Shown: positions 1-24,135, counted from the first letter of the stretch. The stretch is 64,000 nucleotides of DNA from a phage (GCA_012474735.1 GCA_012474735.1_4085.1), one strand, 5' to 3'. Notes: generated from the letters alone by a model not told the origin. Numbers and translations are program-made.

Positions 1-201
1 GCAGTACTCCACGACATAGCACGATAGATATGGCCTTTAACTGGTTGCAATACTGGTAATGTTTTATGGTCTTCTACGTAGGCCATAGCTTGAGGATTTA
101 CCCGATATTGTGTGAACTGTTCCATTATGTTTCCCCTTGTAGTTAGTAAAGTTATTACATCAGTACTATCAAGCTATGTCAATAGTACTGAAATAAAACT
201 T

Positions 202-426
202 TTAGATTAGATTATTGATGCCGTTGATGGTAGACTCGCTTTCTTCTTTCTCCCATTGGCGGTAGTACTTCCATGCTTCATGATATGTGGCGATTAGTTC
301 ATCTTTTTGATCCTGAGTACATGCCAGTATTGAATCACGGTGAGCGGTGTTATAGATAGAATCGAATGATTTCTTCTCTTCTGCCAGGTTAGCTACTTCC
401 CGCATCAGTTCATCAAAGTTAGCCAT
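202..426 (-). CDS. hypothetical early protein (74 aa)
   Basis: ORF; SD AGGAG upstream; promoter unit 445..502. Confidence 0.55.
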   Translation of the reverse strand: MANFDELMREVANLAEEKKSFDSIYNTAHRDSILACTQDQKDELIATYHEAWKYYRQWEKEESESTINGINNLI

Positions 427-444
427 TTTATTACTCCTTTTAGT

Positions 445-502
445 GGGGGAGGATATCTCCCCCTATGCAAAACATTATACTTTGTTTTAGTTATTATGCA
501 AG
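445..502 (-). promoter_or_regulatory. sigma70-like early promoter plus 5' leader hairpin
   Basis: rc: CTTGCA-N17-TATAAT (497..502 / 474..479); hairpin GGGGGAG-N5-CTCCCCC 445..463. Confidence 0.6.
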
Positions 503-757
503 TACTTTTTTCATATAAAGATTATATTCTACACCGCCGTAACCTTCTACGATGATATGTTTTGCGTTATCACGTTTGCACATAGTGAAACCGTTGTTGA
601 TGTGTTCTGCATTTTCCAGGGCGACATCACCGATAGCGGCACATACGGCACTAATAACAGTATTCCGCAAAGTACTGGTATCATTAGCGGTCATAGTAGT
701 TTGCAGTACTACGTTGTCGTATACGTGTGCATTGATAGTGATTTCGATAGTGTTCAT
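494..757 (-). CDS. hypothetical early protein (87 aa)
   Basis: ORF; SD GGAG; promoter unit upstream. Confidence 0.55.
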   Translation of the reverse strand: MNTIEITINAHVYDNVVLQTTMTANDTSTLRNTVISAVCAAIGDVALENAEHINNGFTMCKRDNAKHIIVEGYGGVEYNLYMKKVLA

Positions 758-775
758 GGTGTATCTCCTGGACTG

Positions 776-837
776 GCGGGAGAACTATTCCCCCGATCTA
801 TGTAAAACATTATACGTTAATCTAACTACAATGCAAG
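776..837 (-). promoter_or_regulatory. sigma70-like early promoter plus leader hairpin
   Basis: rc CTTGCA 832..837, TATAAT 809..814, spacer 17; hairpin 776..795. Confidence 0.6.
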
Positions 838-843
838 TACTTT

Positions 844-1035
844 TTAAATTTTATTTCCGATATAGTCCGGTCTATTCTTTTCGGTCATACGCTTTGCTAA
901 TGTTTGCATATGGCTTATTGCGTTTAATGTGTCTTCCTCCAGGGATGAATCAACATAATCAGGATCATTCTTCACCTTGCAATGATTATGATAGCGTAGT
1001 ACTGCCAGTACTTTTTTAACTTCTTCTACTGTCAT
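844..1035 (-). CDS. hypothetical protein (63 aa)
   Basis: ORF; start overlaps stop of upstream gene (coupling). Confidence 0.5.
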   Translation of the reverse strand: MTVEEVKKVLAVLRYHNHCKVKNDPDYVDSSLEEDTLNAISHMQTLAKRMTEKNRPDYIGNKI

Positions 1036-1304
1036 AATAAGTACCCCACTTCGTTAGCTTTCAGGTTAGTATCAATCATCAGTGGATTTTTGTAGTTCAC
1101 AAAACGATTAGTTTTCTCGATAGCGAATCCCATATAATCCAGCTTACTAACAGTACATTCATTCTTAAAAACTTCTTTCGCTGCATCGATGGCTGATTGC
1201 ATGGATAACCGACCATCTAAATTAATGTTTCCAAATGATCCACCAGCAGAAGTAGGATTACCGTTCATATCTTTAATGATCATAGTAGCGGAGTAGCTGG
1301 ACAT
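1032..1304 (-). CDS. hypothetical protein (90 aa)
   Basis: ORF; promoter unit 1327..1385 upstream. Confidence 0.55.
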   Translation of the reverse strand: MSSYSATMIIKDMNGNPTSAGGSFGNINLDGRLSMQSAIDAAKEVFKNECTVSKLDYMGFAIEKTNRFVNYKNPLMIDTNLKANEVGYLL

Positions 1305-1326
1305 AATTTTGTTTCCTTTTAGTATC

Positions 1327-1385
1327 GGGGAGAACTATTCTCCCCTTGATGTAAACTATTATACAGTACTGATATACTTTGTCAA
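1327..1385 (-). promoter_or_regulatory. sigma70-like early promoter plus leader hairpin
   Basis: rc TTGACA 1380..1385, TATAAT 1358..1363; hairpin GGGGAGAA-N3-TTCTCCCC 1327..1345. Confidence 0.6.
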
Positions 1386-1388
1386 TAC

Positions 1389-1610
1389 TTAATTACGTTT
1401 AAAATGATATGTGCCTTTATCATCCTGTACGCCCCACACTGATTTACCATCAACACCAGTGAAACCGGATTGTAATTCAATATGGAAACCATTATTATCA
1501 ACTACAAAAACTTTTTTATTTTCATCCCGATAACATTGATATTCTGAATCAACATTAAAGGCCGCATCATTCAGAAGATTGGAAGCGTAAATGCAAGTCA
1601 TTGTAGTCAT
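1389..1610 (-). CDS. hypothetical protein (73 aa)
   Basis: track ORF trimmed to ATG at 1610; MFYIERGK extension is translated promoter/hairpin. Confidence 0.5.
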   Translation of the reverse strand: MTTMTCIYASNLLNDAAFNVDSEYQCYRDENKKVFVVDNNGFHIELQSGFTGVDGKSVWGVQDDKGTYHFKRN

Positions 1611-1628
1611 GATTTTATTCCTTATTGC

Positions 1629-1691
1629 CAGGGAGAACCATTTCCCCCTCTCGATATAAAACATTATACTTGATTCTAAGTACAATGCAAG
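1629..1691 (-). promoter_or_regulatory. sigma70-like early promoter plus leader hairpin
   Basis: rc CTTGCA 1686..1691, TATAAT 1663..1668, spacer 17. Confidence 0.6.
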
Positions 1692-1804
1692 TACTTTTTA
1701 TCAAATACTTTAAAATAGTTTTCAGTACTGAATACTTATATAATAGATACACTTATGCACCCTGTGGGTCAGTGAGTTATCTCTCAATGAATATATATTA
1801 GCAA

Positions 1805-1828
1805 AGGGACTGACCGGAGTCAATCCCT
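1805..1828 (-). terminator. intrinsic terminator hairpin
   Basis: AGGGACTGAC-CGGA-GTCAATCCCT inverted repeat with flanking T/A runs, downstream of 1842..2426. Confidence 0.5.
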
Positions 1829-1841
1829 TTTTTAATCTTTT

Positions 1842-2426
1842 TTATCGTGTTATAGTTACGGCTTTTACATCACGCTTTTTATAGTACTGATTCCAGATAT
1901 TGCGGGTTAAACCGTAATCAAGTACTTTAATAAGTCCATTACGATCCTGGCCGATATTCTGTTTTCTGATATCTCTTATCGTTAGTGTTGATAATGTATC
2001 ATCGACGTGTTGTAGTGCATCAGCAAAGCGGTGCTGGCGTTCAATGGCATTACGTTTAATATTGTACTTTAATTCGTTGCACGCGTTAACGTGCTTCACA
2101 CTGCCTTTACTTGCAGTACTCAACCGATCCATAACGATAAACATATTATCAGGATCGCATAAATGCATATGCACCTTTGCAAAGTACTGTTTCAATTGAG
2201 GGCGGTCATAGTCTAAAAAATTCCATACCTTACATTCAGTTTCATTTTGTTCTACACCCGCATCACAATTGGCGACCTTAATCACTAACCGATCATTTAA
2301 AGCGAATACGATACGGGAAGAACCCGCCCCGATGATCTCCAGGCCAGCTAACCGACAAGCTGAAAGGATCTCTTTGTTGGTTTCCATTTCTGACAGTGTA
2401 CGGATGAATTTAGTATAATTACGCAT
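1842..2426 (-). CDS. protein kinase-like protein
   Basis: VIKVA, DIRKQN and LDYG motifs resemble kinase beta3-Lys, catalytic loop and DFG; start set at ATG 2426 after AAGGAG. Confidence 0.45.
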   Translation of the reverse strand: MRNYTKFIRTLSEMETNKEILSACRLAGLEIIGAGSSRIVFALNDRLVIKVANCDAGVEQNETECKVWNFLDYDRPQLKQYFAKVHMHLCDPDNMFIVMDRLSTASKGSVKHVNACNELKYNIKRNAIERQHRFADALQHVDDTLSTLTIRDIRKQNIGQDRNGLIKVLDYGLTRNIWNQYYKKRDVKAVTITR

Positions 2427-2457
2427 TGCATGTTCTCCTTGAGTTAATGAAACTATC

Positions 2458-2700
2458 TTACAGTACTTTACTATCAATGGCAACCACTTTTTTCACACTA
2501 ACCGCGTGAATCACTTCCTTAGTGTTTTTAGTACTGAATACTTTCGCTGTTCCTTGTTCTACTGCAATGCGATAACGACCGTTAACATCAACCATATTAA
2601 TAAAGTCCGGTGTACTAAACCGAGTAGTACGGCATTTCAGTACTGTTAACAATTCCACCAGCGATGTAGTTTCTTTGATACGTTTTTCTAAAGTAATCAT
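2458..2700 (-). CDS. hypothetical protein (80 aa)
   Basis: ORF; TTGACA-containing promoter-like sequence upstream. Confidence 0.5.
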   Translation of the reverse strand: MITLEKRIKETTSLVELLTVLKCRTTRFSTPDFINMVDVNGRYRIAVEQGTAKVFSTKNTKEVIHAVSVKKVVAIDSKVL

Positions 2701-2758
2701 TTTGTTTTCCCCCGTGTTGGTATGTACATATAGTACTAAAACATTTGAGTACTGTCAA

Positions 2759-2978
2759 TTAGATAATTGCATATTTCTTTAAAGATAATGCGTCTTGGGT
2801 TGGCTGATACTCAATGCCGTTACCGTTATCTACTTTAACTAATAAACCTTTGTCAATTAGTTTTTTAATAGTCCTTTGGCCTTGTTGAAAATTGGTAAAA
2901 TGTGAATCATTACGAAAGGTATAACCGTGCTTAACTGCTTCATCAATAGTTTTCTTTTCGATTTTAGATAATTTCATT
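2759..2978 (-). CDS. hypothetical protein (73 aa)
   Basis: ORF trimmed to MKLSKIEKK start; SD GGGAGAAAC. Confidence 0.5.
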
Positions 2979-3030
2979 TTGTTTCTCCCGTGTTGGTATG
3001 TGTACATAATACTAAAACAATTGAGTACTG

Positions 3031-3285
3031 TCAACGTGATATTAGTTTTATTTTCTTATTATATTGTTGGTGTTCATATAGGTTTATCTTTCCTGTGTTC
3101 TCAATTACTATTCTGTTGTTAGTGTCTACATCGATTACACGCAGTTTTCCGTTGCTTAACTTCCTTGGTAATAGGTTACCATTAATAAACTCATTAGCAA
3201 GCTGTACGGCCTTTGTGATGATTCTCTGTGGTGCTTTATAGTGTACCCGCAAGATATTATCTTTAGATAGTTGTACCTTAATCAT
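3031..3285 (-). CDS. hypothetical protein (84 aa)
   Basis: ORF; SD AGGA. Confidence 0.5.
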   Translation of the reverse strand: MIKVQLSKDNILRVHYKAPQRIITKAVQLANEFINGNLLPRKLSNGKLRVIDVDTNNRIVIENTGKINLYEHQQYNKKIKLISR

Positions 3286-3306
3286 TTTAGTTTATCCTAT
3301 AAAAAA

Positions 3307-3325
3307 GGCGGGAACTGATCCCGCC
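3307..3325 (-). terminator. intrinsic terminator
   Basis: rc GGCGGGA-TCAGT-TCCCGCC followed by TTTTTT, just after stop of 3348..3743. Confidence 0.6.
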
Positions 3326-3347
3326 GTGTTGTTAGTACTGCAAGTTA

Positions 3348-3743
3348 TTAGATAACCTGGCGGCGTTTACTGTATACTGTTACACGATTACCCTTACGGT
3401 CGTGTCGGATCTCTTTCTGGTTGCGAACCAGTTCACTTGGACGCTTAAGGTTTGCCAGGTGATCCGCGTGAGTCCAAGCGGTATGGTTTGTCTGTACTTT
3501 GATATCAGAATCAGCGATAAATTCATCTTGTGCGTTAAGTACTGCCGCCAGTAAATCCGCTCGTTTTAGTTCTGCTGCTGTTAGTACTGGCTCCGGTGAA
3601 TTCACGATATCAGAGATTTCTTTGAACTGTACGGCCCAGCGTTGACCTTTCGGTGCATCTTTGCCCATGTCTTTAAATGCTGCTCCTTCCTCGCGTGCAA
3701 CAATACGGGCAGCTTCACGGGTAGCGTAGAATTTAGTAATCAT
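3348..3743 (-). CDS. hypothetical protein, paralog of 15779..16044
   Basis: shared FATRE-ARI-AR, FKDMG, DRKGNRVTVY motifs. Confidence 0.6.
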   Translation of the reverse strand: MITKFYATREAARIVAREEGAAFKDMGKDAPKGQRWAVQFKEISDIVNSPEPVLTAAELKRADLLAAVLNAQDEFIADSDIKVQTNHTAWTHADHLANLKRPSELVRNQKEIRHDRKGNRVTVYSKRRQVI

Positions 3744-3787
3744 GGTATACATCCTATTAGTTAAGTTAGTACTACAAGTTAGAGTCT

Positions 3788-3816
3788 ATTATAAAGTACT
3801 ATCTGGGCAATGTCAA
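3788..3816 (-). promoter_or_regulatory. sigma70 consensus promoter
   Basis: rc TTGACA-N17-TATAAT. Confidence 0.6.
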
Positions 3817-3838
3817 ATAGTACTTTAAATGGATTCTA

Positions 3839-4162
3839 TTACATGTCTTTCTTACGTTTTACATCGTAGTAGCGAACTGTTATTTCTTTGTTAATCTCTT
3901 TTTCGATGCGGTGAATAACTTTTTCTTTCGGGTTGAAACCTATAACGGTTTCTTTAATGATCTCCAAACCAGTGTATTCGCCTTGCGTACCGTAACCGTA
4001 TGTAAAGGTTTCATGTCCCAGGTCTTCCCAACGATCACCAATCAATGCAGACACGTAGCAAGAGTGGTAAGTATTGCCGTGTGAATCAGTCCACCGATTA
4101 ACTTTAATGTCAAAGGAGGTTACAATTTTCAGTTCTACTTTCTGGGTAAGGATCATAGCCAT
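3839..4162 (-). CDS. hypothetical protein, paralog of 10097..10420
   Basis: shared RWTDS-GNTYHSC and FTYGY motifs, both end VKRKKD; start trimmed. Confidence 0.6.
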   Translation of the reverse strand: MAMILTQKVELKIVTSFDIKVNRWTDSHGNTYHSCYVSALIGDRWEDLGHETFTYGYGTQGEYTGLEIIKETVIGFNPKEKVIHRIEKEINKEITVRYYDVKRKKDM

Positions 4163-4245
4163 TTTTATTTCTCTCTTTGTTAGGAGGGGAACCATTCCCC
4201 CCTTGATGTAAACTATTATACAGTACTAAGATACTTTGTCAATAC

Positions 4246-4521
4246 TTAATTATTATAAATGTCGTGAATAGTGATAAAGTTTTTACGACCGTAAACCTGC
4301 AAATCAATATCAATGTAGTGCTTATCAAGTACATCCTCGACGCTTAACGCGGTGTCGTGAATATCTTCGTAGAATTGAGGATCTACAATCTTGCTTAAGT
4401 CATCCGGCGTTAACTTATCGTTAAGCAGTTGAACCGCCTGGATATCTGCTTCACGTTTCCAGTCTTCCAGGTTAGTAGTCAGTACTTGTTCGATTTCGTT
4501 AGCTGTCAGTAGAATCCGCAT
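4246..4521 (-). CDS. hypothetical protein (91 aa)
   Basis: ORF behind tandem promoter/leader module. Confidence 0.55.
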   Translation of the reverse strand: MRILLTANEIEQVLTTNLEDWKREADIQAVQLLNDKLTPDDLSKIVDPQFYEDIHDTALSVEDVLDKHYIDIDLQVYGRKNFITIHDIYNN

Positions 4522-4554
4522 TTTAATGTTTCCTTATCAGTGGTTGATGTAAGT

Positions 4555-4699
4555 ATTATACTCGTTTACTTTCTATTGTCAAACTATTTTATCAGGGGAG
4601 TTTTTCGTATGTCTTACTCCTGGACTACTTAACGGGGTTACTTGTTTCGTTCCCCGTCCTGATGTAAAACATTATACTTGATTCTAAGTACAATGCAAG
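4555..4699 (-). promoter_or_regulatory. tandem sigma70-like promoters flanking a conserved structured leader
   Basis: P-a rc TTGACA-N16-TATAAT 4555..4582; P-b 4671..4699; 70-nt leader 4590..4660; near-identical copy at 15068..15214. Confidence 0.55.
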
Positions 4700-4807
4700 T
4701 ACTTTTTAAAAATAGTTTTCAGTACTTGATAGTACTAGCCACCAGCAAACAATAGATACATTTATGCACCCTGTGGGCTAGATTGTTTCAATGCATATAT
4801 AATAGCA

Positions 4808-4831
4808 AAGGGACTGACCGGAGTCAATCCC
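4808..4831 (-). terminator. terminator-like hairpin
   Basis: same AGGGACTGACCGGAGTCAATCCCT element as 1805..1828. Confidence 0.45.
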
Positions 4832-5271
4832 TTTTTCAATTATTTTTAAACTTGTTTTGGGTTGCGATATGTGATAGCGTTCGGGTACATTTGTTTAATG
4901 TTATTCCATGCCTGGTTAACATTGTAACCACTTGAGCGAATCAGTTGGTTACTACCGACACCTTGAAACACTACTTCGAATAAGAATTCTTTCATGCTTT
5001 CACCTCGCGATCTGCTTTACCTTTACGCCAGGACATTACTAATTGTTCGCGTTGCCATAAATCGAGTGATACAAAAAGTTTTGCGGTATCACTTTTAGGA
5101 TACTCGCCAGTAGTACCTAACCGATAAAACAGATCTTTCAGTACTGATAATTCTACTTGAATCATTTTATTACTCCTGATTGCGTTAATACTTCTACTAT
5201 TGCATGAATGATCATAAGTACAGCTAAAACAATAATCATCGGATTCATTTGCATAAGCTGTACTCCTTATA

Positions 5272-5484
5272 TTAATCTTTCAGCCAATGATCTTGAATGA
5301 ATTTTTCACAGAATCCCTGTTTCATGGATTCTAACAGGCGTTCACGGTGAGCGTTGGCAAATTGCTCAGTACTATGCGTTACGCCAGGCTGATAACGTGA
5401 TACCCCATCCGGTCCGATGTATTGTACATCCCACGGTTTTTCGTTAGTATCAGACCATTTACGAACGATTAGTTGACCTTGCAT
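5272..5484 (-). CDS. hypothetical protein (70 aa)
   Basis: ORF; promoter unit 5502..5561. Confidence 0.55.
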   Translation of the reverse strand: MQGQLIVRKWSDTNEKPWDVQYIGPDGVSRYQPGVTHSTEQFANAHRERLLESMKQGFCEKFIQDHWLKD

Positions 5485-5501
5485 TTTTCTTTCCTCTCAG
5501 T

Positions 5502-5561
5502 GGGGAGAATCATTTCTCCCCTTCATGTAACTTATTATACAGTACTAGATTACATTGTCAA
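5502..5561 (-). promoter_or_regulatory. sigma70-like early promoter plus leader hairpin
   Basis: rc TTGACA 5556..5561, TATAAT 5534..5539; hairpin GGGGAGAA-N4-TTCTCCCC 5502..5521. Confidence 0.6.
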
Positions 5562-5567
5562 TAGTTT

Positions 5568-5891
5568 TTATTCACCTTGTTTGAATTTAGTTTTCTCCAT
5601 TGATTCCATGATTGCAACCAATACGCCGTGGATCTCGCTTAACGCGGAATCACTAAAAGCATTAATGAATAGTCGATCATTCTCGCGAATATTTTTAATG
5701 TACTTTTCAGCAGTAGTTGCGAATTCATTCAACGGTAGATCAAATGCTTTATCCCATGATGGATGGCGTAATTGTAACAGTACTGGATTATCACGATCAC
5801 CAGGGGAAAACGTACCAGTGATGAAACATACGCCCGGAATACTTTCGAACTGGCAACGGACTTCCTTTGTGATAGTAGTATGAATGTACAT
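5568..5891 (-). CDS. hypothetical protein (107 aa)
   Basis: ORF; SD GAGGA. Confidence 0.5.
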   Translation of the reverse strand: MYIHTTITKEVRCQFESIPGVCFITGTFSPGDRDNPVLLQLRHPSWDKAFDLPLNEFATTAEKYIKNIRENDRLFINAFSDSALSEIHGVLVAIMESMEKTKFKQGE

Positions 5892-5918
5892 TTATTGTTA
5901 TCCTCTATTAAATTAATA

Positions 5919-6113
5919 TTACAGTTTATGAATCAATTCTTTATCTAAGCGATAGCGTACATTATTAATAGTAACGGCATTGTTTTTAATGCTACGCTGT
6001 ACAGGTCCACCAGCAATAACAAATGTTGCTTTATTACCCCGAACAATGATAGCACTTCCAGGATTACCGAAATCATCTTGTACTAAAATACTTGATAAGT
6101 TTTCCATTTTCAT
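5919..6113 (-). CDS. hypothetical protein (64 aa)
   Basis: ORF; hairpin/promoter-like unit 6120..6185. Confidence 0.5.
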   Translation of the reverse strand: MKMENLSSILVQDDFGNPGSAIIVRGNKATFVIAGGPVQRSIKNNAVTINNVRYRLDKELIHKL

Positions 6114-6185
6114 TTCCTCTTAGTAGGGGAAGATGTTTCCCCTTGATGTAAGTACTATAACAGTACTGAAAACTAAATGCAAGTA

Positions 6186-6542
6186 CTATGATAAAATCAT
6201 GATAGGATATTCACTATCGATCAGTACTTCGAATCCGAAACCTTCGTACCATTCTTTAAGATTGAAGGCGTTATCTTCTCCTGTATCGCATTCTAAAATG
6301 ATACAATCTGAATCATCGGCGGCATCAATAAAGGCATTCATTAATTCGTTACCTTCACCATTGCCCCGACTATCAGGATCAACATAAAGAGAATCAATAA
6401 ACGCTACACGGTCATAATCAAGATCCGGTGCAATGATTCCACGTTTAACAAACCAGTACTGCAATTGTGCTACTTTGCCCTGTACTTGATAGCCAGTGAT
6501 CTCGCCATTGTCAGTAGTACGCGTGATATGTTGTATTCCCAT
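6186..6542 (-). CDS. possible GNAT-family acetyltransferase
   Basis: RGNGEGNELMNAFI resembles GNAT motif A (R/Q-x-x-G-x-G/A). Confidence 0.35.
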   Translation of the reverse strand: MGIQHITRTTDNGEITGYQVQGKVAQLQYWFVKRGIIAPDLDYDRVAFIDSLYVDPDSRGNGEGNELMNAFIDAADDSDCIILECDTGEDNAFNLKEWYEGFGFEVLIDSEYPIMILS

Positions 6543-6605
6543 GATTTCTATCCTCAGTTAAGATATAAAACATTATACACTATCTTTCAGTACTGTCAAT
6601 ACTTT

Positions 6606-6863
6606 TTATCTCATAGATCTATGCCAACAATTACGCGGGGGACGTTTAAAAGTACTATCATGATCCTCCTGGCAAGTTATGCAGTACTTACATCCCTTAA
6701 CGGCCTGGCGTCGTTTCTCAGGGATTATATCGCCGCAGTCGAGGCAATGTATCAGTGATTCTATTTGTGCGTTAATTTGCTTTCTAGCGTGGTTAACGGC
6801 GGCCTGAATCACTGCGTTAATCTCGTCTTGCTCGGCCCCATCTTTCGCGAATCCAACAGCCAT
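6606..6863 (-). CDS. TraR/DksA-family C4 zinc-finger protein
   Basis: CLDCGDIIPEKRR...CKYCITCQ matches TraR/DksA CxxC-N17-CxxC finger. Confidence 0.55.
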   Translation of the reverse strand: MAVGFAKDGAEQDEINAVIQAAVNHARKQINAQIESLIHCLDCGDIIPEKRRQAVKGCKYCITCQEDHDSTFKRPPRNCWHRSMR

Positions 6864-7194
6864 TATTTTAACCTCATTATAAAAATACTATAGTACTGTA
6901 ATGCGACAATAATATTACTTGTTCTTACTTTTTCCAATCCACATGATACCACATATTCATCCCCATATGTGCGAAACGATACACCATGAAAATTTTTATA
7001 CACTTGCACTACTAATCATAACCTTTCGTCTAACCAACTGCATAGAATTATACTACTTTACGCAAATTGATCAAGTATTGATCAGATCATTTTTTGATCA
7101 ATATTATACAGTTACATTTGTGCACCCTATGGGTTAGTGACGTTCTCGTCTTGATGTAAGTATTATGCCAGTACTGGATGATATTGTCAATAGA

Positions 7195-16828: not shown

Positions 16829-16852
16829 CGTTTTAATCTCTCTTAATGTGTA

Positions 16853-16912: not shown

Positions 16913-17191
16913 TACTTTCTACAAATACTTTTAAAATAGTTTTCTTTCTATATAGGGGAACTATTATTCAGTACTGCAACCATCCAGGGGAACTATCTTT
17001 CTATATAGGAGTACTATTATTCAGTACTGAATCAATCAACCAAATCACTACTACACCCCGTAAAACGGCCTCAGACGCATTCTAACGCATTAATACACCC
17101 AAGCTATACATTTGCACCATTCCAATCATTCCAGGGCTTTACAGGCCGTTTAAACGCGTTAAATTATTTTCAATTATTTTGTTTTTAGCTA

Positions 17192-17219
17192 TTGACTCAG
17201 TACTAAAAAAGCGTATAAT
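17192..17219 (+). promoter_or_regulatory. plus-strand promoter-like element
   Basis: TTGACT-N16-TATAAT followed by TACTACATAGACG...GATCCGTC, similar to region after 12810. Confidence 0.4.
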
Positions 17220-17406
17220 TACTACATAGACGCGAGAAAGCGGATACCCCAGGGGGTGGGAAGATCCGTCCAAAATTCAAGATATAAAAAAAGGATACAC
17301 TCCCGCACCCTAGCAGGTTAACGCACTTTCTCAGTACTGAATTATAGTACCATAGTCCGGCCCAGGATGGCAAGCAAATTAATTAAAACTTTTTTCATCC
17401 AGGGTA

Positions 17407-17434
17407 TTGCTTTATTTTTCCAGTACTGTATAAT
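17407..17434 (+). promoter_or_regulatory. plus-strand promoter-like element
   Basis: TTGCTT-N16-TATAAT followed by CCCACCGGGTGCA motif. Confidence 0.35.
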
Positions 17435-18779
17435 AGTTCCATCAAGTCGAGAAAGACTCAAGCCCACCGGGTGCATAGTTACGCCCAAAATTCAGTACTG
17501 AAAAAATTTTTAAAAATATCCGTCCAGGCCGTTGACATTGCCCCCAGTTTATAAGATAATGATTCCAGATTCAGAAAAATCTAACTCCAGATACTGCGGG
17601 GAAACTATCCCCACGCGGTAGGGGAACTATTGGAAAAAACAAAATAAAATTTTGATTTAGCCGTCTATACTTCCAGACGTGTAACCATCTAGCCGTTTAG
17701 CCGTCTAGATGGATAGCCATCTTTACTTCCAGACTTCTGGAGGGCTAGACATATCTACGCCCAAAATCCATCCAGGGTAACTACGCCCAAAATCCGTCAG
17801 TACTATACCATAGATCTATCTTTTGAAAGGGAGTATTCAGTACTGCCATCATAGCCCTCACTATGTTACCCTAGGAGGATGAAGACTATCATGTAGTACT
17901 GAATACTGTTAGAGGGAATCCACCAGCTTGTGCTGGTGGCATAATGCTTTAGATTAAAATCAGTACTGACACCATTCTGTTAATATCAGTACTGTTATTA
18001 CGATTTTCATATGAGGTTCAAAAAGATGTACCACCACAGGAGGAACTATCTTTTCTGTACTGTCTCACGACAGGAGGTAGAGTAAATGAATTGTTCGCAG
18101 CAACTCATCTCTCTATGTAGAACATTATACAGTACTGAATCATAATGTCAATAGCTTTCTTTCATTATTCAGTACTGATATTCTTGAGAACTACCCGACT
18201 ACAAACATCATTATATCCCACAAATCATAAACGTCCCAACGTAAATTTCAACTTTCGAAGATCCAACTTTTATTTCATAGGTACTCCAAAATTTTTAGGA
18301 TCGAGATTTAGGATGGAGTACTAACCAACTTTTTGCTGGAGCCTCAAGGGGTAATTGAATTTTACCCCGAAGGGTAAAGGGGTAATTGAAATTAAGGTGA
18401 AAGTAATAATTCAGTACTAATCATTGCGTGATTACTTTTGATTACATTTGATGTAATTTGAAAAATGGAAAAGGAGCTTGGAAACTACAAAGTACGGCAG
18501 ACTTCCTCTGCCTACTTAGTGGCATATCAGTACTGAATCCTTCCCTAGCATTCTTGAGCAATCTTGTCTATACTAATCAGTACTGAATCATATATAATCA
18601 TTCTGTGATTCTACGGTGCTCATATAAATGTTTATATATGATTACTTATGACTACCTATGATTACGGGGTTTAGCCTGGGGAGAATCCTAGTGATCGCAT
18701 TTGTCCAGGCTGAATTTTAACAATTCGCCTGTACATAAAGGTTGTTCACTAGGAGCTTCCCCTGTCTACTTGTGTTTAA

Positions 18780-18971
18780 TTACTTCCTATATATAAGCAT
18801 TAAGATATAGTAGTACTGATTATACTGTACATTCTCTTTAATATTATAAGGGTCTATAGCAATCTCGGTACATCTGTTAAATGCATATCTATTAAATGCC
18901 AGTGGAATTATAGATCTAATCCATACTTGTTCATTTTCTTTTAGTTTACTTATATAGAAGTTTTTATACAT
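18780..18971 (-). CDS. small paralog family protein (63 aa)
   Basis: array family: N-term MxKxFY, C-term LIYRK. Confidence 0.55.
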   Translation of the reverse strand: MYKNFYISKLKENEQVWIRSIIPLAFNRYAFNRCTEIAIDPYNIKENVQYNQYYYILMLIYRK

Positions 18972-18986
18972 AGTATTCTCTATTAA

Positions 18987-19169
18987 TTAATATGATAGTA
19001 CTAGTGTTAGTACTGAGCACAATTGTTCTTTGTAGTTCTTAGGGTATATAGAATCTTTTATGCACTCATTGAAGTGCCATAGGTATAATCTTGGGTCGCA
19101 TTCTTTATATATTCTTACGGGGACGAATGTTAGTTTTCGTATATAGAATTCTTTATGTTCTTTATTCAT
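18987..19169 (-). CDS. small paralog family protein (60 aa)
   Basis: MNKEHKEFY start; array member. Confidence 0.55.
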   Translation of the reverse strand: MNKEHKEFYIRKLTFVPVRIYKECDPRLYLWHFNECIKDSIYPKNYKEQLCSVLTLVLSY

Positions 19170-19170
19170 A

Positions 19171-19359
19171 TTAGTACCTGAATATAAGTAGGATTATGTT
19201 ATAGTACTGGTTAGTACTGCAATGATTCTCTATACATCGATTAACAGTTATGGAATAGCTATATCTGGCGTAAGCATTATCCAGCGGGATTTTACATTGA
19301 GCACTTAGAGAAAGTACAGTAGGTAGTGTATTCAAATAGAAGTCTTTGTAATTATTCAT
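19171..19359 (-). CDS. small paralog family protein (62 aa)
   Basis: MNNYKDFYLNTLP ... LLIFRY. Confidence 0.6.
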   Translation of the reverse strand: MNNYKDFYLNTLPTVLSLSAQCKIPLDNAYARYSYSITVNRCIENHCSTNQYYNIILLIFRY

Positions 19360-19561
19360 ACAGGAATAGTATACCTATGATACCTGAGTACAGGTTAGTA
19401 CTGTTACCATCTTCGTTTGCGTTTAAAGTCATTTGAATACAATTATTGTAGCATACTCTGCCGAAAAATGTATTAGTACTTAAAGGTGGAGTATTCCTTA
19501 GAAACATTTGTTCTGAGGGGCTTATGTATTTGGAGTAGAATTCTTTATGTTCTTTATTCAT
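19352..19561 (-). CDS. small paralog family protein (69 aa)
   Basis: MNKEHKEFY ... ILFLYE. Confidence 0.6.
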   Translation of the reverse strand: MNKEHKEFYSKYISPSEQMFLRNTPPLSTNTFFGRVCYNNCIQMTLNANEDGNSTNLYSGIIGILFLYE

Positions 19562-19566
19562 ATTAG

Positions 19567-19752
19567 TTAGTGTCTGTATATAAGTAATAGTAAGAATACG
19601 TACTGCACATCTTCATCTTTAGTATTGAGTACTGTACGTATTGCGTCATGGAACAAGAATATAGTACTTGGGTCATGAAAATTTAAAGGGGTTCTGGGTA
19701 CGGCATGTTTGTAGTTCCCTTTAACAAATTGTGTGTAGTATTCTCTATGCAT
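19567..19752 (-). CDS. small paralog family protein (61 aa)
   Basis: MHREYYTQF ... LLLIYRH. Confidence 0.6.
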   Translation of the reverse strand: MHREYYTQFVKGNYKHAVPRTPLNFHDPSTIFLFHDAIRTVLNTKDEDVQYVFLLLLIYRH

Positions 19753-19753
19753 A

Positions 19754-19939
19754 TTAGTACCTATATATTAGGGCGAGAATGTAGTACAATTCATATGGAA
19801 TGTAATTTGGGGTGATCGCACACTGTGTATGGTAAATGAATTGTTCGGTATTTTTCTTATCCTTGATATCTATTGGGATTTGTGGTATAAGCATTTGGGA
19901 GTTTAGATCGAGGTGGCTTAAGTAGAATTCTTTATGCAT
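19754..19939 (-). CDS. small paralog family protein (61 aa)
   Basis: MHKEFYLSHL ... LALIYRY. Confidence 0.6.
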   Translation of the reverse strand: MHKEFYLSHLDLNSQMLIPQIPIDIKDKKNTEQFIYHTQCAITPNYIPYELYYILALIYRY

Positions 19940-19948
19940 ATTGTTCTC

Positions 19949-20137
19949 TTAGAATACGAAAGCTAGGTACAGGGTATGATACAGTACTCGATGATAGCTG
20001 TCAAAATCTAGTATACATGCTTTAGTGCACATAGTAAAGTACACTTTCTCGTTTTGTGCATTGATACCGCGAGGTTTATCTAATAGATTAGTTCTGAGGT
20101 ACATTGGGAAATATTTTGTGTAGTATTCTTTATGCAT
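19949..20137 (-). CDS. small paralog family protein (62 aa)
   Basis: trimmed to MHKEYYTKYF start; LYLAFVF end. Confidence 0.55.
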   Translation of the reverse strand: MHKEYYTKYFPMYLRTNLLDKPRGINAQNEKVYFTMCTKACILDFDSYHRVLYHTLYLAFVF

Positions 20138-20138
20138 A

Positions 20139-20321
20139 TTAGTACCTGAATATAAGTAGGATAGTGTTATATAGCTGGTCATAACTACTACTATTTTCTA
20201 TACTTCGTTCTATGCAGTTATTGAATCCCAGTACTGCCAAATCGTTATCCATAGGGACTTTATATCTGGCGTAGTGTTCAAAAATGCTGGGGAGAAATTG
20301 TGTGTAGTATTCTTTGTGCAT
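20139..20321 (-). CDS. small paralog family protein (60 aa)
   Basis: MHKEYYTQFLP ... LLIFRY. Confidence 0.6.
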   Translation of the reverse strand: MHKEYYTQFLPSIFEHYARYKVPMDNDLAVLGFNNCIERSIENSSSYDQLYNTILLIFRY

Positions 20322-20322
20322 A

Positions 20323-20508
20323 TTAGTACCTATATATTAGTAAAAGGATGTGATACAGTACTCGATTATAGTCTTCAATATATATCGAGGATTTAGTGCA
20401 CTGAATGAAGTAGTCTTTTTCGTAGTTTTTTTCTATACCCAATGCAACGTTTGGTACAAGGTGTTGGAGATACATTGGGAGTTTCTCTATGTAGTATTCT
20501 TTATACAT
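20323..20508 (-). CDS. small paralog family protein (61 aa)
   Basis: MYKEYYIEKLP ... LLLIYRY. Confidence 0.6.
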   Translation of the reverse strand: MYKEYYIEKLPMYLQHLVPNVALGIEKNYEKDYFIQCTKSSIYIEDYNRVLYHILLLIYRY

Positions 20509-20517
20509 ATATTATCC

Positions 20518-20718
20518 TTAGTACTGGAACGCAAGGTACAGGGTGTGGTACAGTTGTACTTGATAATTGTTTTCATTAGCTTCTTCATTAAGTACTTGTT
20601 CAGTACATGTACGGAAGTAATCAGCTTCATATATACAGTCAATACCGCGAGGTTCATCTTCTAATAGATTTCCTTGTAGAAACTTTGGTAGTTCTTTTAT
20701 GTAGAATTCTTTATACAT
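20518..20718 (-). CDS. small paralog family protein (66 aa)
   Basis: trimmed to MYKEFYIKELP start; LYLAFQY end. Confidence 0.55.
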   Translation of the reverse strand: MYKEFYIKELPKFLQGNLLEDEPRGIDCIYEADYFRTCTEQVLNEEANENNYQVQLYHTLYLAFQY

Positions 20719-21382
20719 AGTTTGTAATATACGTAATGAGGTGATGCATTTTCTTATTAGTACTGATAATTTCCTGTACATGTTTTGTCAGATTGTACGC
20801 GTTTTTATAGAGTGCTGGATTATCGATTACAGTACTGTACATGAATAGTTCTTCCTCGGATAATTCTTTGCCTTGTAATTCTTTGAGGAATTGTAGTACT
20901 GTATCAGTTTCTTCTGTACGTTGTGCTTGCCAGAAGTGCATATTCTCGTGTACTTTTTCTGCATCAGTAGAGTATATGCCACCCATTTGGAATTGTGCTG
21001 TATTGACATCGTGGGAGGTGTTACAATTCCCGAAGAAGTATGTATTCCCGAAGTATAGCATTAAAGTGCACGGGGTATTATCCAACTGCATATTGATGAT
21101 GAAGGATGCGTTCTTTAGTACCTTTGTGCTCGTATTAGTACTCAATACTTTTAAATCAGTATTATAGATATTCATATAATGAACAGCTATATTATTTTTC
21201 TTCATGTACAATTCAAGGTTCTTTGATACGTTAACTCCATTTGTACTGGATTTTTCCTTTTTATTTCGTTTCTTTAGTACATTCGGGTGATACGTATATG
21301 CAGATGTAACTGATTCTGCCTGAATACTATTGAGGTACTTAAAGTGCTTAAGGTATTGTTTGCTGTGTGCATTAAGTTTCAT
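20711..21382 (-). CDS. hypothetical protein (223 aa) embedded in small-gene array
   Basis: ORF; no recognisable domain. Confidence 0.5.
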   Translation of the reverse strand: MKLNAHSKQYLKHFKYLNSIQAESVTSAYTYHPNVLKKRNKKEKSSTNGVNVSKNLELYMKKNNIAVHYMNIYNTDLKVLSTNTSTKVLKNASFIINMQLDNTPCTLMLYFGNTYFFGNCNTSHDVNTAQFQMGGIYSTDAEKVHENMHFWQAQRTEETDTVLQFLKELQGKELSEEELFMYSTVIDNPALYKNAYNLTKHVQEIISTNKKMHHLITYITNYV

Positions 21383-21392
21383 TTGGTTTCCT

Positions 21393-21572
21393 TTATATAG
21401 ATGCCAGGGCGAGGATTTCCCTGTAGGGATTATCTTGTGTTAGTACAGCATAAATGCAGCTATTGAGATTAATATTTTTAGTACTTTTTGTTCCTAGTTT
21501 GTAGTACTTCACGAAGGTGTCGTACATGAAACGGTCTTTTATGGTTATACGTTCTCTATAGAATTGTTGCAT
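21393..21572 (-). CDS. small paralog family protein (59 aa)
   Basis: found by eye below cutoff; MQQFYRERIT start. Confidence 0.4.
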   Translation of the reverse strand: MQQFYRERITIKDRFMYDTFVKYYKLGTKSTKNINLNSCIYAVLTQDNPYREILALASI

Positions 21573-21580
21573 AGTATTCC

Positions 21581-21763
21581 TTAAATAGCGATTAGTTTCA
21601 TTACTTCTCTGTATGTGTACTTTTCGTTTTGTGCATCTCTTGTGACGACATATAGGAAGGTGTGTTTATCTTTTTTGTTCCCGCAATTGTAGAAAATATT
21701 GAACTTATTGAAGTTGAATCTTTCGGCGTGTTGTAGTTTAGTTAAATAGAATTCTATGTTCAT
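21581..21763 (-). CDS. small paralog family protein (60 aa)
   Basis: MNIEFYLTKL ... MKLIAI. Confidence 0.55.
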   Translation of the reverse strand: MNIEFYLTKLQHAERFNFNKFNIFYNCGNKKDKHTFLYVVTRDAQNEKYTYREVMKLIAI

Positions 21764-21771
21764 TTTCTTCC

Positions 21772-21957
21772 TTACATTTCAATAAGTTTCAGTACTGCTC
21801 GGTACGTGTACTTAGTTGTCAGTGCTTCTTTAATAGAAATACAGAAGTAATGTTGTTTGTCTCTTATACTGCCGCGTTTGTAGTACCACACATGGGAGTT
21901 GTGACTGTACTTGTCTCTGTCGGATAGTTGTTGGTAGTAGTAGCTTATATGATTCAT
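21772..21957 (-). CDS. small paralog family protein (61 aa)
   Basis: MNHISYYYQQL ... LKLIEM. Confidence 0.55.
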   Translation of the reverse strand: MNHISYYYQQLSDRDKYSHNSHVWYYKRGSIRDKQHYFCISIKEALTTKYTYRAVLKLIEM

Positions 21958-22004
21958 TGTAATTAGCCTTACTATGTTAAAGTACTCGGTCCCTGGTGTA
22001 CCTT

Positions 22005-22199
22005 TTAGAACTTAAAGATGAGGTTCAGGATAGAGCGGTACTTAGTTGCAGGGAACGTATGTTCTATTGCATAACGTGTCACCATCCTGAAATCGTAATT
22101 ATAATACAGATTATCCTTTCTCATAGGTGGTGCTAAAGAGAATGATAGCTGTTCTTGTTTGGGTAGTTTACTACAATAGAAATCTTTATGATTATTCAT
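22005..22199 (-). CDS. small paralog family protein (64 aa)
   Basis: MNNHKDFYCSKLP ... LNLIFKF. Confidence 0.6.
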   Translation of the reverse strand: MNNHKDFYCSKLPKQEQLSFSLAPPMRKDNLYYNYDFRMVTRYAIEHTFPATKYRSILNLIFKF

Positions 22200-22401
22200 A
22201 GAAATATATTAGTCCTATTAAACCTGAGTACATAATATTTTTGTTATTACATTCGATTGCTTCTATAGTACTACGTATACAATTATTAAAGCAATCTCTG
22301 GCGTGTGGTGTATCTATACTTAAAGGTGATACACTCCTTAGAAACAATTGTTCTTCGTTGCTAAGGTATTTGGTGTAGAATTCTTTATGTTCAGTATTCA
22401 T
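22192..22401 (-). CDS. small paralog family protein (69 aa)
   Basis: MNTEHKEFYTKYL ... LIYFYE. Confidence 0.6.
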   Translation of the reverse strand: MNTEHKEFYTKYLSNEEQLFLRSVSPLSIDTPHARDCFNNCIRSTIEAIECNNKNIMYSGLIGLIYFYE

Positions 22402-22402
22402 A

Positions 22403-22606
22403 TTAGTACTCGATTAAAAGGGCAAGGATATAATAGTATTGCATACTTTCTGCCCCTTGTAAAGCATTTCTTATGATATTACTCCTGTACGAGTTCAGGA
22501 GTTTAGGACAACGTTTGTAGTGTATAAAAGTATTTTGTGTATACAGTAGGCTTTCTCGTAGACCTTTTGTTGGTAGTGCATCGATGTAGTACTGTTCAAT
22601 GTTCAT
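22403..22606 (-). CDS. small paralog family protein (67 aa)
   Basis: MNIEQYYIDALP ... LALLIEY. Confidence 0.55.
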   Translation of the reverse strand: MNIEQYYIDALPTKGLRESLLYTQNTFIHYKRCPKLLNSYRSNIIRNALQGAESMQYYYILALLIEY

Positions 22607-22830
22607 ATAGATAGCAGTACTAAGATTTTTGATAATTGTTTATTGCTATCCCCGCAGATGTTGCTGTGTAAAATACTCACAATGAGGGTATCAATTGCAT
22701 TGTTCATCATAAGGGTGCATCCTGGACTATTATAATTTTTTAGCTCAATTAGCCACGAACTATCCGCGAGAAATTCCCCGTACTCTAGTTCATTTAGAGT
22801 ATTGAGGTAGTACTTAAGAGTATTTGTCAT
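22603..22830 (-). CDS. small paralog family protein (75 aa)
   Basis: MTNTLKYYLNTL ... array member. Confidence 0.5.
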   Translation of the reverse strand: MTNTLKYYLNTLNELEYGEFLADSSWLIELKNYNSPGCTLMMNNAIDTLIVSILHSNICGDSNKQLSKILVLLSI

Positions 22831-22932
22831 GTGTAGTTCTCCTTATATTCCTTCTATAGTACACCAGTACTGAAAGGATGTCAAGGGTTTTCTTTATGGG
22901 GTAAATATGATATAATGAATAAGGAGGGAAAT

Positions 22933-24135
22933 ATGTTACCTTTTGGAAGAATGGTTAAGTACGCAAATATTGCACCAGGTCCAGAACCTGTAGAGTTCTC
23001 AGATGTTTTACAACAACATTATACAAACTGTATGTATCTACATAACCCAACTAATACTTTATATGGTTATGGTAGTAATAACATGTATCAATTTGGTCTT
23101 GGGAATTCAGCAGCAGTTTCGTCATTTACAGTACTTGCAAGGAACTGTGCAGCCTTTTGGCTTGGTGTTCAAGGTTCGTTGATGATTGATTTGGATAATA
23201 AAATATACTACACTGGGTCTGTGGCTGCATTTTCTGATTATGGAGATGCAACACCTGTTAATGGTTATTTGACAACATGGACTGATGTTACTGTTGCATT
23301 TAATAAAATAGGTGTTATGGCTAATATGATCAAGAGTGTATATATAGGTGAAAGTACTAGAATATTATTAACCGATGGTAGAGTAATTGCGTGTGGAAGA
23401 AATACCAATGGTGAATGTGGCTCTGGTAATAAAAATTCCATCCCTACACTCACAGTTATGACTAATATGGGTGAAGTTACACATATGGCATGTTCATTAC
23501 AAGGAACGCACTATATCAAATCAAATAAAGATGCATGGTTTTGTGGTAAGGATAACTTTGGTGAAAGTGGATGTGGTGGTAGTTCTGTTGTATATTTGAA
23601 CAAATTCGTGATTAGTAATGTAGAACATATTAGTACTACATACGATGTTACTTGGTGGTTTACTACTGGTGGGTCTGTATATTATAGCGGGGCTAACAGT
23701 ACTGGACAAGCGGGTAATGGTACGACTACATCGGTAAATCAGCTAACACCAATTAGGAACACATCGGTCACGGTTGATGTAAGTAAGTACAGTACTTTTA
23801 TTTGTCCAAGTAATATGGGAAATGCATCAATTGGTGCACCTATGGCACAATACGCACCATATGTTAGAAGTAGTGGTGCTAACTCATATGGTCAAGAAGG
23901 TAATGGAACTAATACATTAGTTAGAACTTGGAATATTTTTAATCTTAGTGCAATAAGTGGTGGTTATGAAAATGTTCTTATGGCATCTAAAGATTGGAGC
24001 AGAACCATAATAATTACTAAAGATTATAAATTATATGCATGTGGTGGCTGGAATGGAAATGGTGGTAGATTGCCAGATGGCACTTATAGTATTACTACAC
24101 TAACATTAATGCCAACGCAGTTATGGCAACAATAG
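22933..24135 (+). CDS. RCC1-like beta-propeller repeat protein, array member 1
   Basis: start MLPFGRMVKYANIAPG after AAGGAGGG; repeated G-x-N-x-x-G-Q-x-G-x-G blades. Confidence 0.7.
   Translation: MLPFGRMVKYANIAPGPEPVEFSDVLQQHYTNCMYLHNPTNTLYGYGSNNMYQFGLGNSAAVSSFTVLARNCAAFWLGVQGSLMIDLDNKIYYTGSVAAFSDYGDATPVNGYLTTWTDVTVAFNKIGVMANMIKSVYIGESTRILLTDGRVIACGRNTNGECGSGNKNSIPTLTVMTNMGEVTHMACSLQGTHYIKSNKDAWFCGKDNFGESGCGGSSVVYLNKFVISNVEHISTTYDVTWWFTTGGSVYYSGANSTGQAGNGTTTSVNQLTPIRNTSVTVDVSKYSTFICPSNMGNASIGAPMAQYAPYVRSSGANSYGQEGNGTNTLVRTWNIFNLSAISGGYENVLMASKDWSRTIIITKDYKLYACGGWNGNGGRLPDGTYSITTLTLMPTQLWQQ

Follow-up and report, generated by a model that had tools for sequence, protein, structure and literature searches.

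The DNA analysed here is a 64-kb stretch of 64,000 nucleotides (the window), which megablast assigned to an Asteriusvirus-like (Rak2-like) jumbo coliphage, and the element in question is AGTACT, a six-base palindrome dispersed through it. The closest relatives are JP4 (98.5%) and E9.1, 121Q, fEgEco12 and G17 (92-98%). Position 1 of fEgEco12, an experimentally determined left end, aligns to window position 18516 in reverse orientation, and therefore window 1-18516 lies inside a direct terminal repeat of ~21 kb. The minus-strand genes of this part point inward from the genome end. Between the genes of 1-18.5 kb one cassette follows another, and every cassette combines a sigma70 promoter close to consensus with a 5' hairpin (GGGGAG...CTCCCC) and a ribosome-binding site that is strong. 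A large repeat-rich non-coding stretch at 17374-18779 contains position 18516; the GC skew switches sign there, and the stretch is probably the inner boundary of the terminal repeat together with the genome terminus. Two tandem arrays lie beyond it, one of about 20 paralogous open reading frames (ORFs) of 60-77 amino acids (aa) and one of 10 RCC1-like beta-propeller genes of roughly 300-430 aa (Table 1).

Enrichment, symmetry and conservation of AGTACT

AGTACT was found 274 times in the window, compared with 21.1 ± 4.3 expected from dinucleotide shuffles, the largest of which gave 31, and it was the top-ranked hexamer. The 8-mer CAGTACTG was observed 58 times against 0.98 expected. In the complete 121Q genome (348 kb), which was used for whole-genome comparison, AGTACT is again the top-ranked hexamer (903 copies, about 100 expected, ~9-fold) and the sole clearly enriched palindrome, the runner-up AACGTT being at 1.6-fold. 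An earlier reading of this DNA made from its sequence alone (the sequence-only reading) had described the palindrome as enriched and placed it between the genes of 1-23000. The excess was borne out, also by the separate shuffling of coding and intergenic DNA that this reading had suggested as a check: the counts were 70 vs 3.5 expected (intergenic) and 78 vs 4.8 (coding) in 1-23000, and 17 vs 1.7 and 105 vs 11.5, respectively, in 23001-64000, i.e., 9-20 fold in coding and in intergenic DNA alike. The proposed location proved too narrow: 183 of the 274 sites lie within ORFs, with 91 intergenic or across ORF ends, and 124 sites are located beyond position 23000.

The density of AGTACT in 121Q is 1.1-3 per kb throughout, with an average of 2.6 per kb and a peak of 6.5 per kb in the terminal repeat; the terminal-repeat early region of the window has 6-7 sites per kb. 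A 100 kb sample of E. coli K-12 contained six sites (0.06 per kb), so that the phage density is about 43x that of the host DNA sampled. Outside the early region, the sites are spread uniformly along genes, with dips only at the ribosome-binding site and the stop codon, and no link to gene starts or ends was found. Gaps between sites in the conserved core are evener than random (coefficients of variation of 0.74 and 0.83 vs 0.98 ± 0.09), and the largest are about 2 kb, compared with about 3.1 kb for random placement. No helical or regular spacing was detected except a small peak at 20-22 bp, which comes from promoter pairs. Directly after the left terminal repeat of 121Q, two blocks of 4.1 kb and 7.6 kb have no AGTACT at all. 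The edges of these deserts are sharp in both 121Q and fEgEco12, with 3-10 sites per kb in the adjoining DNA, and such sharp-edged regional enrichment argues against a uniform mutational bias. Recent acquisition of the desert blocks as foreign DNA was considered; megablast matched them nowhere outside Asteriusviruses, and the forbidden palindromes described below are missing from them too.

Codon-shuffle tests on ORFs of at least 100 aa showed where the intragenic copies come from. These ORFs contain 124 AGTACT, whereas 33.7 ± 5.4 were obtained when synonymous codons were shuffled within genes and 17.9 ± 4.3 when codon order was shuffled. All three reading frames carry the word (as Ser-Thr, x-Tyr-x and x-Val-Leu), and 60 of 116 Ser-Thr pairs are spelled AGTACT, compared with about 14% expected from codon frequencies. 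Intragenic AGTACT is created by synonymous codon choice, and codon or dipeptide usage was rejected as its cause by the two shuffles and the use of all frames. The unusual anticodon ACT, reading AGT, was found in an annotated tRNA-Ser of 121Q (75,464-75,555); AGT is the commonest serine codon and also the first half of AGTACT.

The flanks of the site were symmetric. In gene orientation, the base before AGTACT is C at 0.42 and G at 0.11 (C 42-48% and G 5-11% across counts), and the base after it is G at 0.48 and C at 0.06. Further out, the sequence is T-rich upstream and A-rich downstream, giving CAGTACTG and, weakly, TTCAGTACTGAA as the preferred extended form, and the avoidance of G beside AGTACT is common to every lineage sampled. 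One-mismatch variants are mildly enriched, mostly 1.0-2.2 fold, and non-palindromic variants are about as frequent as their own reverse complements. Such a graded, extended palindrome is typical of what would be expected for a protein-binding site. Together, the shuffles, the use of all frames and the symmetric flanks indicate that the pressure is on double-stranded DNA and not on protein or RNA. An RNA-level signal was rejected on the symmetry of flanks and variant pairs relative to gene orientation. An asymmetric word of the Chi or uptake type did not fit either, since AGTACT and its flanks are symmetric.

Comparison of the window with 121Q showed that 89% of AGTACT sites are unchanged, compared with 79% of all hexamers. 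The values are 87.9% vs a background of 68.0% in 1-23000, a difference estimated at about 5 standard deviations, and 95.6% vs 87.3% in 35-64 kb. At aligned positions, 27 sites were lost and 36 gained. When the capsid regions of nine genomes were aligned, few sites proved common to all and most were lineage-specific, although the eight closest lineages each have 25-45 sites per 21 kb, most of them 35-45. Selection thus keeps the density up, while most positions turn over between genera. Relatives were compared through the loci around the major capsid gene and ranked by capsid protein identity. AGTACT was 3.2-7.1-fold enriched in every contig with at least 85% identity, including one that is probably Yersinia phage fHe-Yen9-04, and 3.1-fold in a relative at 72%; at 69% or below nothing consistent was observed (231 in total vs 201 expected). 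The enrichment was 10.6-fold in Klebsiella phage Rak2 and 11-fold in Xanthomonas phage XbC2, whereas about 1.1 Mb of unrelated phage loci were depleted (123 vs 287 expected). Hence, the enrichment is real, strongly selected and clade-wide, a trait of the Rak2-like clade at 3-11 fold in all sampled loci.

The remaining palindromes behave in the opposite way. In 121Q, 24 of the 64 hexamer palindromes have zero copies (3-47 of each expected), and the same 24 are missing from the window (summed expectation, 108), so that the premise of the sequence-only reading that phages usually deplete restriction-type palindromes holds strongly here. AGTACT itself, at 9-13 fold enrichment, is not a restriction-avoidance target. 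The purged palindromes include CCATGG, TGGCCA, GCATGC, CTGCAG, CAGCTG, GGTACC and GGATCC; GAATTC, GATATC, GTGCAC and CACGTG are not avoided. DNA of fEgEco12 is cut normally by ten restriction enzymes, ScaI not among them, and therefore carries no global hypermodification.

Early promoters, terminators and neighbouring features

A promoter scan that was blind to AGTACT placed the first base of the site, relative to the start, at -19 (13 times), -20 (6), -29/-30 (7), -39 (9) and -42/-43 (3). By our reading of the scan list, about 22 of the 28 minus-strand promoters in 1-18.5 kb have AGTACT between -43 and -14. The scan bore out the placement of the site directly abutting the -10 box in the sequence-only reading, and both CAGTACTG-TATAAT and CCAGTACTGG-CATAAT are present. 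The site shares bases with the extended -10 TG, with the -35 hexamer (its first T or its last A), and with a AAAAAGTA stretch resembling an UP-element subsite, so that AGTACT is dual-coded with an intact promoter. There are 11 exact copies of TTGACA-N9-AGTACTGTATAAT in 121Q and 8 in Rak2, with only six others in a collection of 2.9 million viral contigs. Both Rak2 and 121Q have AGTAC/TTGACA-N9-AGTACT-GTATAAT, in which N9 varies from copy to copy; in the Rak2 promoters the second AGTACT, 20 bp upstream, overlaps the -35 hexamer. As in operators of dimeric regulators, a dyad-symmetric site is found at fixed promoter positions and is conserved across relatives while the spacer bases vary.

Several promoter-plus-gene cassettes of the terminal repeat are also present in rV5-like coliphages, at 79-88% identity. 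In one of these, phage W70, the shared cassettes carry AGTACT at the same promoter positions, but 50 kb of its structural and replication genes contain the word 5 times vs 11.7 expected. Therefore, the promoter copies can persist without the genome-wide phenomenon. The sharing would fit an exchange of mobile regulatory cassettes of the kind called PeSLs (PMC4122927).

In the RCC1 array, the terminator stems have the form GCCAGTAC-N3-GTACTGGC followed by a T-run, with half-sites as arms. The sequence-only reading had the stems formed by the palindrome itself; they are indeed built from its half-sites, but of the 8 units in which the stem is found just 4 contain the exact hexamer, and at one array junction the stem is missing. 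A G+C-containing inverted repeat followed by a T-run, as expected of an intrinsic terminator, was found in the eight RCC1 units and at 35829-35854, which accounts for fewer than 15 of the 274 sites. Terminator function arises as a by-product, in which nearby half-sites or sites pair into a hairpin within one duplicated array. Of nine array junctions checked, seven repeat the same terminator followed by TATAAT, and the ribosome-binding site is repeated in all nine.

Several other features were observed in and around the early region. Small early genes and their promoters match rV5-like and phAPEC8-like coliphages (Vequintavirinae, Phapecoctavirus) at 79-90% nucleotide identity, and the matches to the early-gene cassettes include 13 'Campylobacter phage' records of comparable length, about 140-146 kb, which suggests that such cassettes may have been exchanged between unrelated coliphage lineages. 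Most early genes on the minus strand of 1-18000 have a conserved hairpin in their 5' leader, of the form GGGGAG-N5-7-CTCCCC or a variant of it, after the predicted transcription start and ahead of the ribosome-binding site, and the architecture is the same in Rak2 (GGGGATACATAGTGTATCCCC). Eight short units on both strands of 1-18 kb each have a strong promoter of their own, followed ~25-30 nt later by (A/G)CCCA(C/T)(A/C)GGGTGCA; they may be small RNAs. Rfam gave no match for them or anywhere else in the window, and they contain only a weak 7-bp consensus hairpin without covariation. In a compact terminator-promoter cassette, AAAGGGTTGACTTCGGTCAGCCCTTTTTGCTATAAT, the hairpin holds the -35 (TTGACT) and the T-run is the spacer to the -10, resembling the PeSLs of T4-like phages. 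The E. coli Chi sequence GCTGGTGG was found 9 and 2 times on the two strands of the window vs 0.18 expected per strand, and 18 and 11 times in 121Q vs 1.1 expected. It is concentrated in the terminal repeat and mainly oriented like the early genes, and it may protect the entering DNA end against RecBCD.

Table 1. Positions of AGTACT-related and neighbouring features (window coordinates unless another genome is named; a slash marks the overlap of AGTACT with the -35)
Feature	Position	Strand	Basis or remark
Dispersed AGTACT sites, 274 copies, 58 as CAGTACTG	1..64000	.	counts, shuffles
Part of ~21-kb terminal repeat/early region, densest in AGTACT	1..18516	-	alignment, density; intergenic 11.7/kb, ORFs 4.1/kb (1-18000)
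Ordinary-gene region, 77 sites in ORFs	35001..64000	-	3.0/kb, about 9x expectation, all three frames
Early promoter TTGACA-N9-AGTACT-G-TATAAT, commonest class	1358..1385	-	scan; site 1365-1370 at -19..-14
Early promoter AGTACT-A-TTGACA-N9-AGTACT-GG-CATAAT	7955..7990	-	scan; sites 7985-7990 and 7963-7968, 22 bp apart, flank the -35; TG after proximal site at extended -10 position
Early promoter, AAAA-AGTAC/TTGCAA class	8705..8771	-	scan; site 8732-8737 shares last T with -35; second site 34 bp upstream (8766-8771), across UP-element-like A/T-rich stretch
Early promoter, TTGAC/AGTACT class	6572..6599	-	scan; site 6589-6594 at -29, first A shared with -35
CCAGTACTGG-CATAAT promoter before short conserved non-coding unit with ACCCAYMGGGTGCA	7090..7195	-	site 7170-7175
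First strong promoter inside genome end, TTGACA-N9-AGTACT-G-TATAAT	18124..18176	-	site 18131-18136; further site 18171-18176
Same architecture outside terminal repeat, TTGACA-N9-AGTACT-G-TATAAT	44386..44413	-	site 44393-44398
Further copies of this architecture outside terminal repeat	-10 boxes start 55010, 59324		
RCC1-array terminator GCC[AGTACT]CTGTACTGGC + T-run	25260..25278	+	
Further RCC1-array terminators, GCC[AGTACT]CTGTACTGGC + T-run	30207-30225, 31429-31447		as 25260..25278
RCC1-array terminator GCC[AGTACT]TC[AGTACT]GGC + T-run	28953..28972	+	two full sites
RCC1-array terminator GCCAGTAC-ACT-GTACTGGC	26470..26488	+	half-site arms only, no exact hexamer
Similar half-site RCC1-array terminators	27690-27708, 32681-32699, 33957-33975		
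Terminator-like two-site hairpin AATCC[AGTACT]TAAT[AGTACT]GGATT + T-run	35829..35854	+	
Paralogue array	18780-22830	-	
RCC1-like array	22915-35174	+	
Early genes common to rV5-like/phAPEC8-like phages	844-1035, 8009-8215, 10442-11100, 12442-12729, 13687-14009, 15460-16464		
Short units	1725-1830, 4734-4839, 7090-7195, 8767-8872, 15333-15438	-	
Short units	12773-12878, 15246-15351, 17401-17506	+	facing against early genes
Terminator-promoter cassette AAAGGGTTGACTTCGGTCAGCCCTTTTTGCTATAAT	-10 starts 39511, 40925, 42207, 47115, 49812, 49994, 53236	-	also 4804, 8842
Chi GCTGGTGG	1240, 2655, 4739, 6007, 7469, 11187, 17920, 44883, 61490	-	
Chi GCTGGTGG	11249, 17932	+	
AGTACT deserts, tightly packed ORFs of roughly 70 aa	121Q 155,502-159,569 and 161,800-169,384; fEgEco12 21-26 kb and 30-37 kb		

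Candidate readers of the palindrome

We tentatively propose, at somewhat less than even confidence, that AGTACT is bound throughout the genome by a symmetric protein, probably encoded by the phage, and that at early promoters the site works as an operator. A two-fold symmetric protein of the Rak2-like clade, most likely encoded by the phage, would recognise CAGTACTG and, weakly, TTCAGTACTGAA in double-stranded DNA, and selection would hold its sites at high density over almost the whole chromosome. With 2.6 sites per kb in 121Q and 0.06 per kb in the sampled E. coli DNA, the protein would therefore load preferentially on phage DNA. At early promoters, where the sites overlap the -35, fill the spacer to the -10 and lie about 10 or 20-22 bp apart on one helix face, host RNA polymerase would face competition from one or two bound dimers; the likeliest local role would therefore be that of an operator which turns early promoters off or tunes them, and the promoters would be shut off once the protein was made. 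The intragenic copies may be additional loading, roadblock or architectural sites. An operator for a dimeric regulator, or a role in promoter and terminator cassettes, had also been suggested by the sequence-only reading. The true palindrome, its symmetric flanks, the fixed positions at the -35 and in the spacer and their retention between genera speak for an operator, but either role explains only a minority of the sites, since two thirds are in genes, evenly spread, and their positions turn over.

Several observations weigh against a symmetric phage protein of this kind. Pfam and PHROGs searches of the 134 window ORFs revealed neither a helix-turn-helix protein nor another classical DNA-binding family, except a sigma factor and a DksA-like zinc finger; in the rest of the 121Q genome, candidate readers were judged from annotation. 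Sites of only 6-8 bp are recognised more typically by restriction or modification enzymes than by transcription factors, for which they are short, and AGTACT shows no preferred spacing apart from the promoter pairs. An operator role needs no ~760 intragenic copies, and the blocks of 4 and 7.6 kb without a site indicate that coverage is not required everywhere. In addition, W70 suggests that the promoter copies can function, or at least persist, without a clade-specific factor, and a host component or RNA polymerase itself might read them.

The short palindrome would suit a phage orphan methyltransferase, for which a six-base palindrome is a typical target. AGTACT would then be kept abundant in the fashion of the cyanobacterial palindrome HIP1, and its methylation would label the DNA of the phage or let early promoters respond to replication state, by which fully methylated incoming DNA differs from newly replicated DNA. 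The clade encodes a short C5-cytosine enzyme (PF00145), conserved at 63-78% identity in Rak2, CBB, GAP32 and XbC2, and a Dam-like N6-adenine enzyme (PF05869) with a 45% homologue in fHe-Yen9-04, both orphan; high-frequency palindromes of cyanobacteria co-occur with cognate methyltransferases (PMC4390886), and the sites overlap -35 and -10-proximal DNA, where methylation can alter promoter use. The flank preferences and the avoidance of G, however, are unexpected if the target were strictly a hexamer. The deamination products AGTATT and AATACT are not in excess among neighbours or lost sites, and methylation alone gives no reason for a 9-fold enrichment. The C5 enzyme was rejected as the writer, since the unrelated phages that bear homologues deplete AGTACT (the 123 copies given above), and a search for relatives of the Dam-like enzyme in viral contigs returned 121Q alone. 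We regard methylation as a rather unlikely explanation. An entry or cleavage site for a phage DNA-processing enzyme, steering it to phage and not host DNA, seems unlikely as well. A T4-like type II topoisomerase (for which a 4-base stagger, A^GTAC^T, would fit), a primase, or a nicking or recombination-initiating nuclease would profit from a palindrome that serves both strands, from the about 43x density over sampled host DNA, from the uniform spread along genes and from the evener-than-random core gaps, and 121Q encodes T4-like topoisomerase II subunits, a primase, a helicase and Mre11/Rad50-like proteins. On the other hand, such an enzyme leaves the fixed early-promoter positions and the 6-7 sites per kb of the terminal repeat unexplained and the 4.1 and 7.6 kb blocks unserved, and to our knowledge none of the known primases or type II topoisomerases depends so strictly on one hexamer. 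With a similarly small chance of being right, the density itself may be a sequence-encoded 'self' label in place of the base modification that is absent from these phages: a clade-specific reader would sense the ~40-fold contrast in site density between phage and host and use it to target the viral chromosome for protection, transcription control, topology or recombination, the deserts being deliberately unlabelled.

A host protein as the reader is improbable. Early promoters must fire before any phage protein exists, and the site-bearing cassettes are also present in an unrelated rV5-like coliphage; the obvious candidate is SlmA, whose published site GTGAGTACTCAC has AGTACT as its core (PMC3020112), and about a thousand sites would titrate or activate SlmA and block division. 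SlmA, however, needs G1, T2, a purine at 3, A4, G5 and a pyrimidine at 6, with the mirror image on the other side of its 12-bp palindrome (PMC3020112); the core present in every phage site supplies A4, G5 and the pyrimidine. The phage flanks instead favour T-T-C, with G the rarest base directly before the core; GTRAGYRCTYAC occurs in neither the window nor all of 121Q, GT.AGTACT.AC occurs 0 and 2 times, respectively, and the enrichment persists in a phage reported from Xanthomonas. SlmA is thus disfavoured, as no canonical site exists in 348 kb and the essential flanks are missing and partly avoided. We know of no other host regulator with this site. Least credible of all, and already largely refuted, is that AGTACT has no function of its own and is a by-product of codon or dipeptide usage, duplicated cassettes, or biased mutation or repair. 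AGT and ACT are favoured codons, the intergenic cassettes and the RCC1 array are repetitive, and a repair-drive model has been proposed for HIP1 (PMC4390886), but the shuffles yield 34 and 18 copies where 124 are observed in all frames. Conservation above background, the sharp regional edges and independent gains at non-homologous positions in each lineage also speak against a by-product. A repair drive of the VSP/HIP type was rejected, because it predicts depleted one-mismatch neighbours and none is depleted (relative to expectation, AGTATT stands at 1.42 and AATACT at 1.05).

These genomes purge 24 palindromes yet make AGTACT their top hexamer, and it is conserved and turns over at constant density in phages reported from Escherichia, Klebsiella, Yersinia and Xanthomonas. 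Taken together, this points to a so far unrecognised system of reading DNA in a widespread group of jumbo phages. No description of AGTACT or CAGTACTG was found in the literature in a phage, jumbo phage, Asteriusvirus, phAPEC6 or operator context, and neither the text of the Sharanji, fEgEco12 and CBB papers nor that of the CBB supplements mentions the motif. ScaI is expected to cut these genomes into about a thousand pieces unless AGTACT is modified. Rak2-like jumbo phages are therapy candidates, and a reader, if found, would provide a way into their early-gene control and host takeover, where nearly all genes involved are of unassigned function. It might also show how a jumbo phage with neither modified DNA nor a nucleus distinguishes its genome from that of the host.

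Comparison with known systems

The terminal redundancy of phage SPO1 is a host-takeover module of many small early genes, each with a strong host-type promoter. SPO1 also encodes TF1, an abundant DNA-binding protein that prefers phage DNA, has sites at early promoters and shuts them down. By analogy, the mode proposed for the AGTACT reader would resemble the action of TF1, with the difference that TF1 discriminates phage DNA through hydroxymethyluracil, a modified base, and the proposed reader through a sequence word. No HU-like gene was seen in the 121Q annotation. Stoperators of cluster A mycobacteriophages are likewise many copies of one repressor site across a genome, beyond promoters. They are asymmetric and orientation-dependent, with about 30 copies per genome that lie mostly between genes and function in lysogeny, whereas the AGTACT sites are symmetric, about 900 in number and mostly intragenic, and nothing suggesting lysogeny was seen. 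The restriction site of ScaI/Eco255I is the same hexamer, which other phages deplete and which is 9-fold enriched here despite the 24 purged palindromes.

The early-gene cassettes have the same layout as the PeSLs of T4-like phages, in which a near-consensus sigma70 early promoter and a stem-loop are repeated, flank small variable genes and are exchanged (PMC2839356, PMC4122927); those of the window are shared with rV5-like phages. The text of PMC4122927 contains neither AGTACT nor GTAC, and PeSLs leave the intragenic enrichment unaccounted for. The SlmA site of E. coli, GTGAGTACTCAC, has an identical central hexamer and is a palindrome bound by a dimeric TetR-type protein, and SlmA sites too are dispersed along the chromosome and not confined to promoters (PMC3020112). 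Unlike that site, AGTACT lacks the G1, T2 and purine-3 flanks, which are partly counter-selected.

The closest counterpart is HIP1 (GCGATCGC) of cyanobacteria, with its alternate HIPs. As with AGTACT, it is a many-fold over-represented palindrome that occurs roughly once per gene, in coding as well as non-coding DNA, and is conserved above background, and orphan methyltransferases are found in the same genomes (PMC5861425, PMC4390886). AGTACT differs from it in being 6-8 bp long, AT-richer, viral and not inherited from the host (0.06 sites per kb), in its extra concentration at fixed early-promoter positions, and in showing no repair-drive signature. Hence, AGTACT is closest in kind to HIP1, but it is viral and has a promoter-specific layer, and its reader, if found, would give the 30-year-old HIP1 problem a tractable counterpart in a virus.

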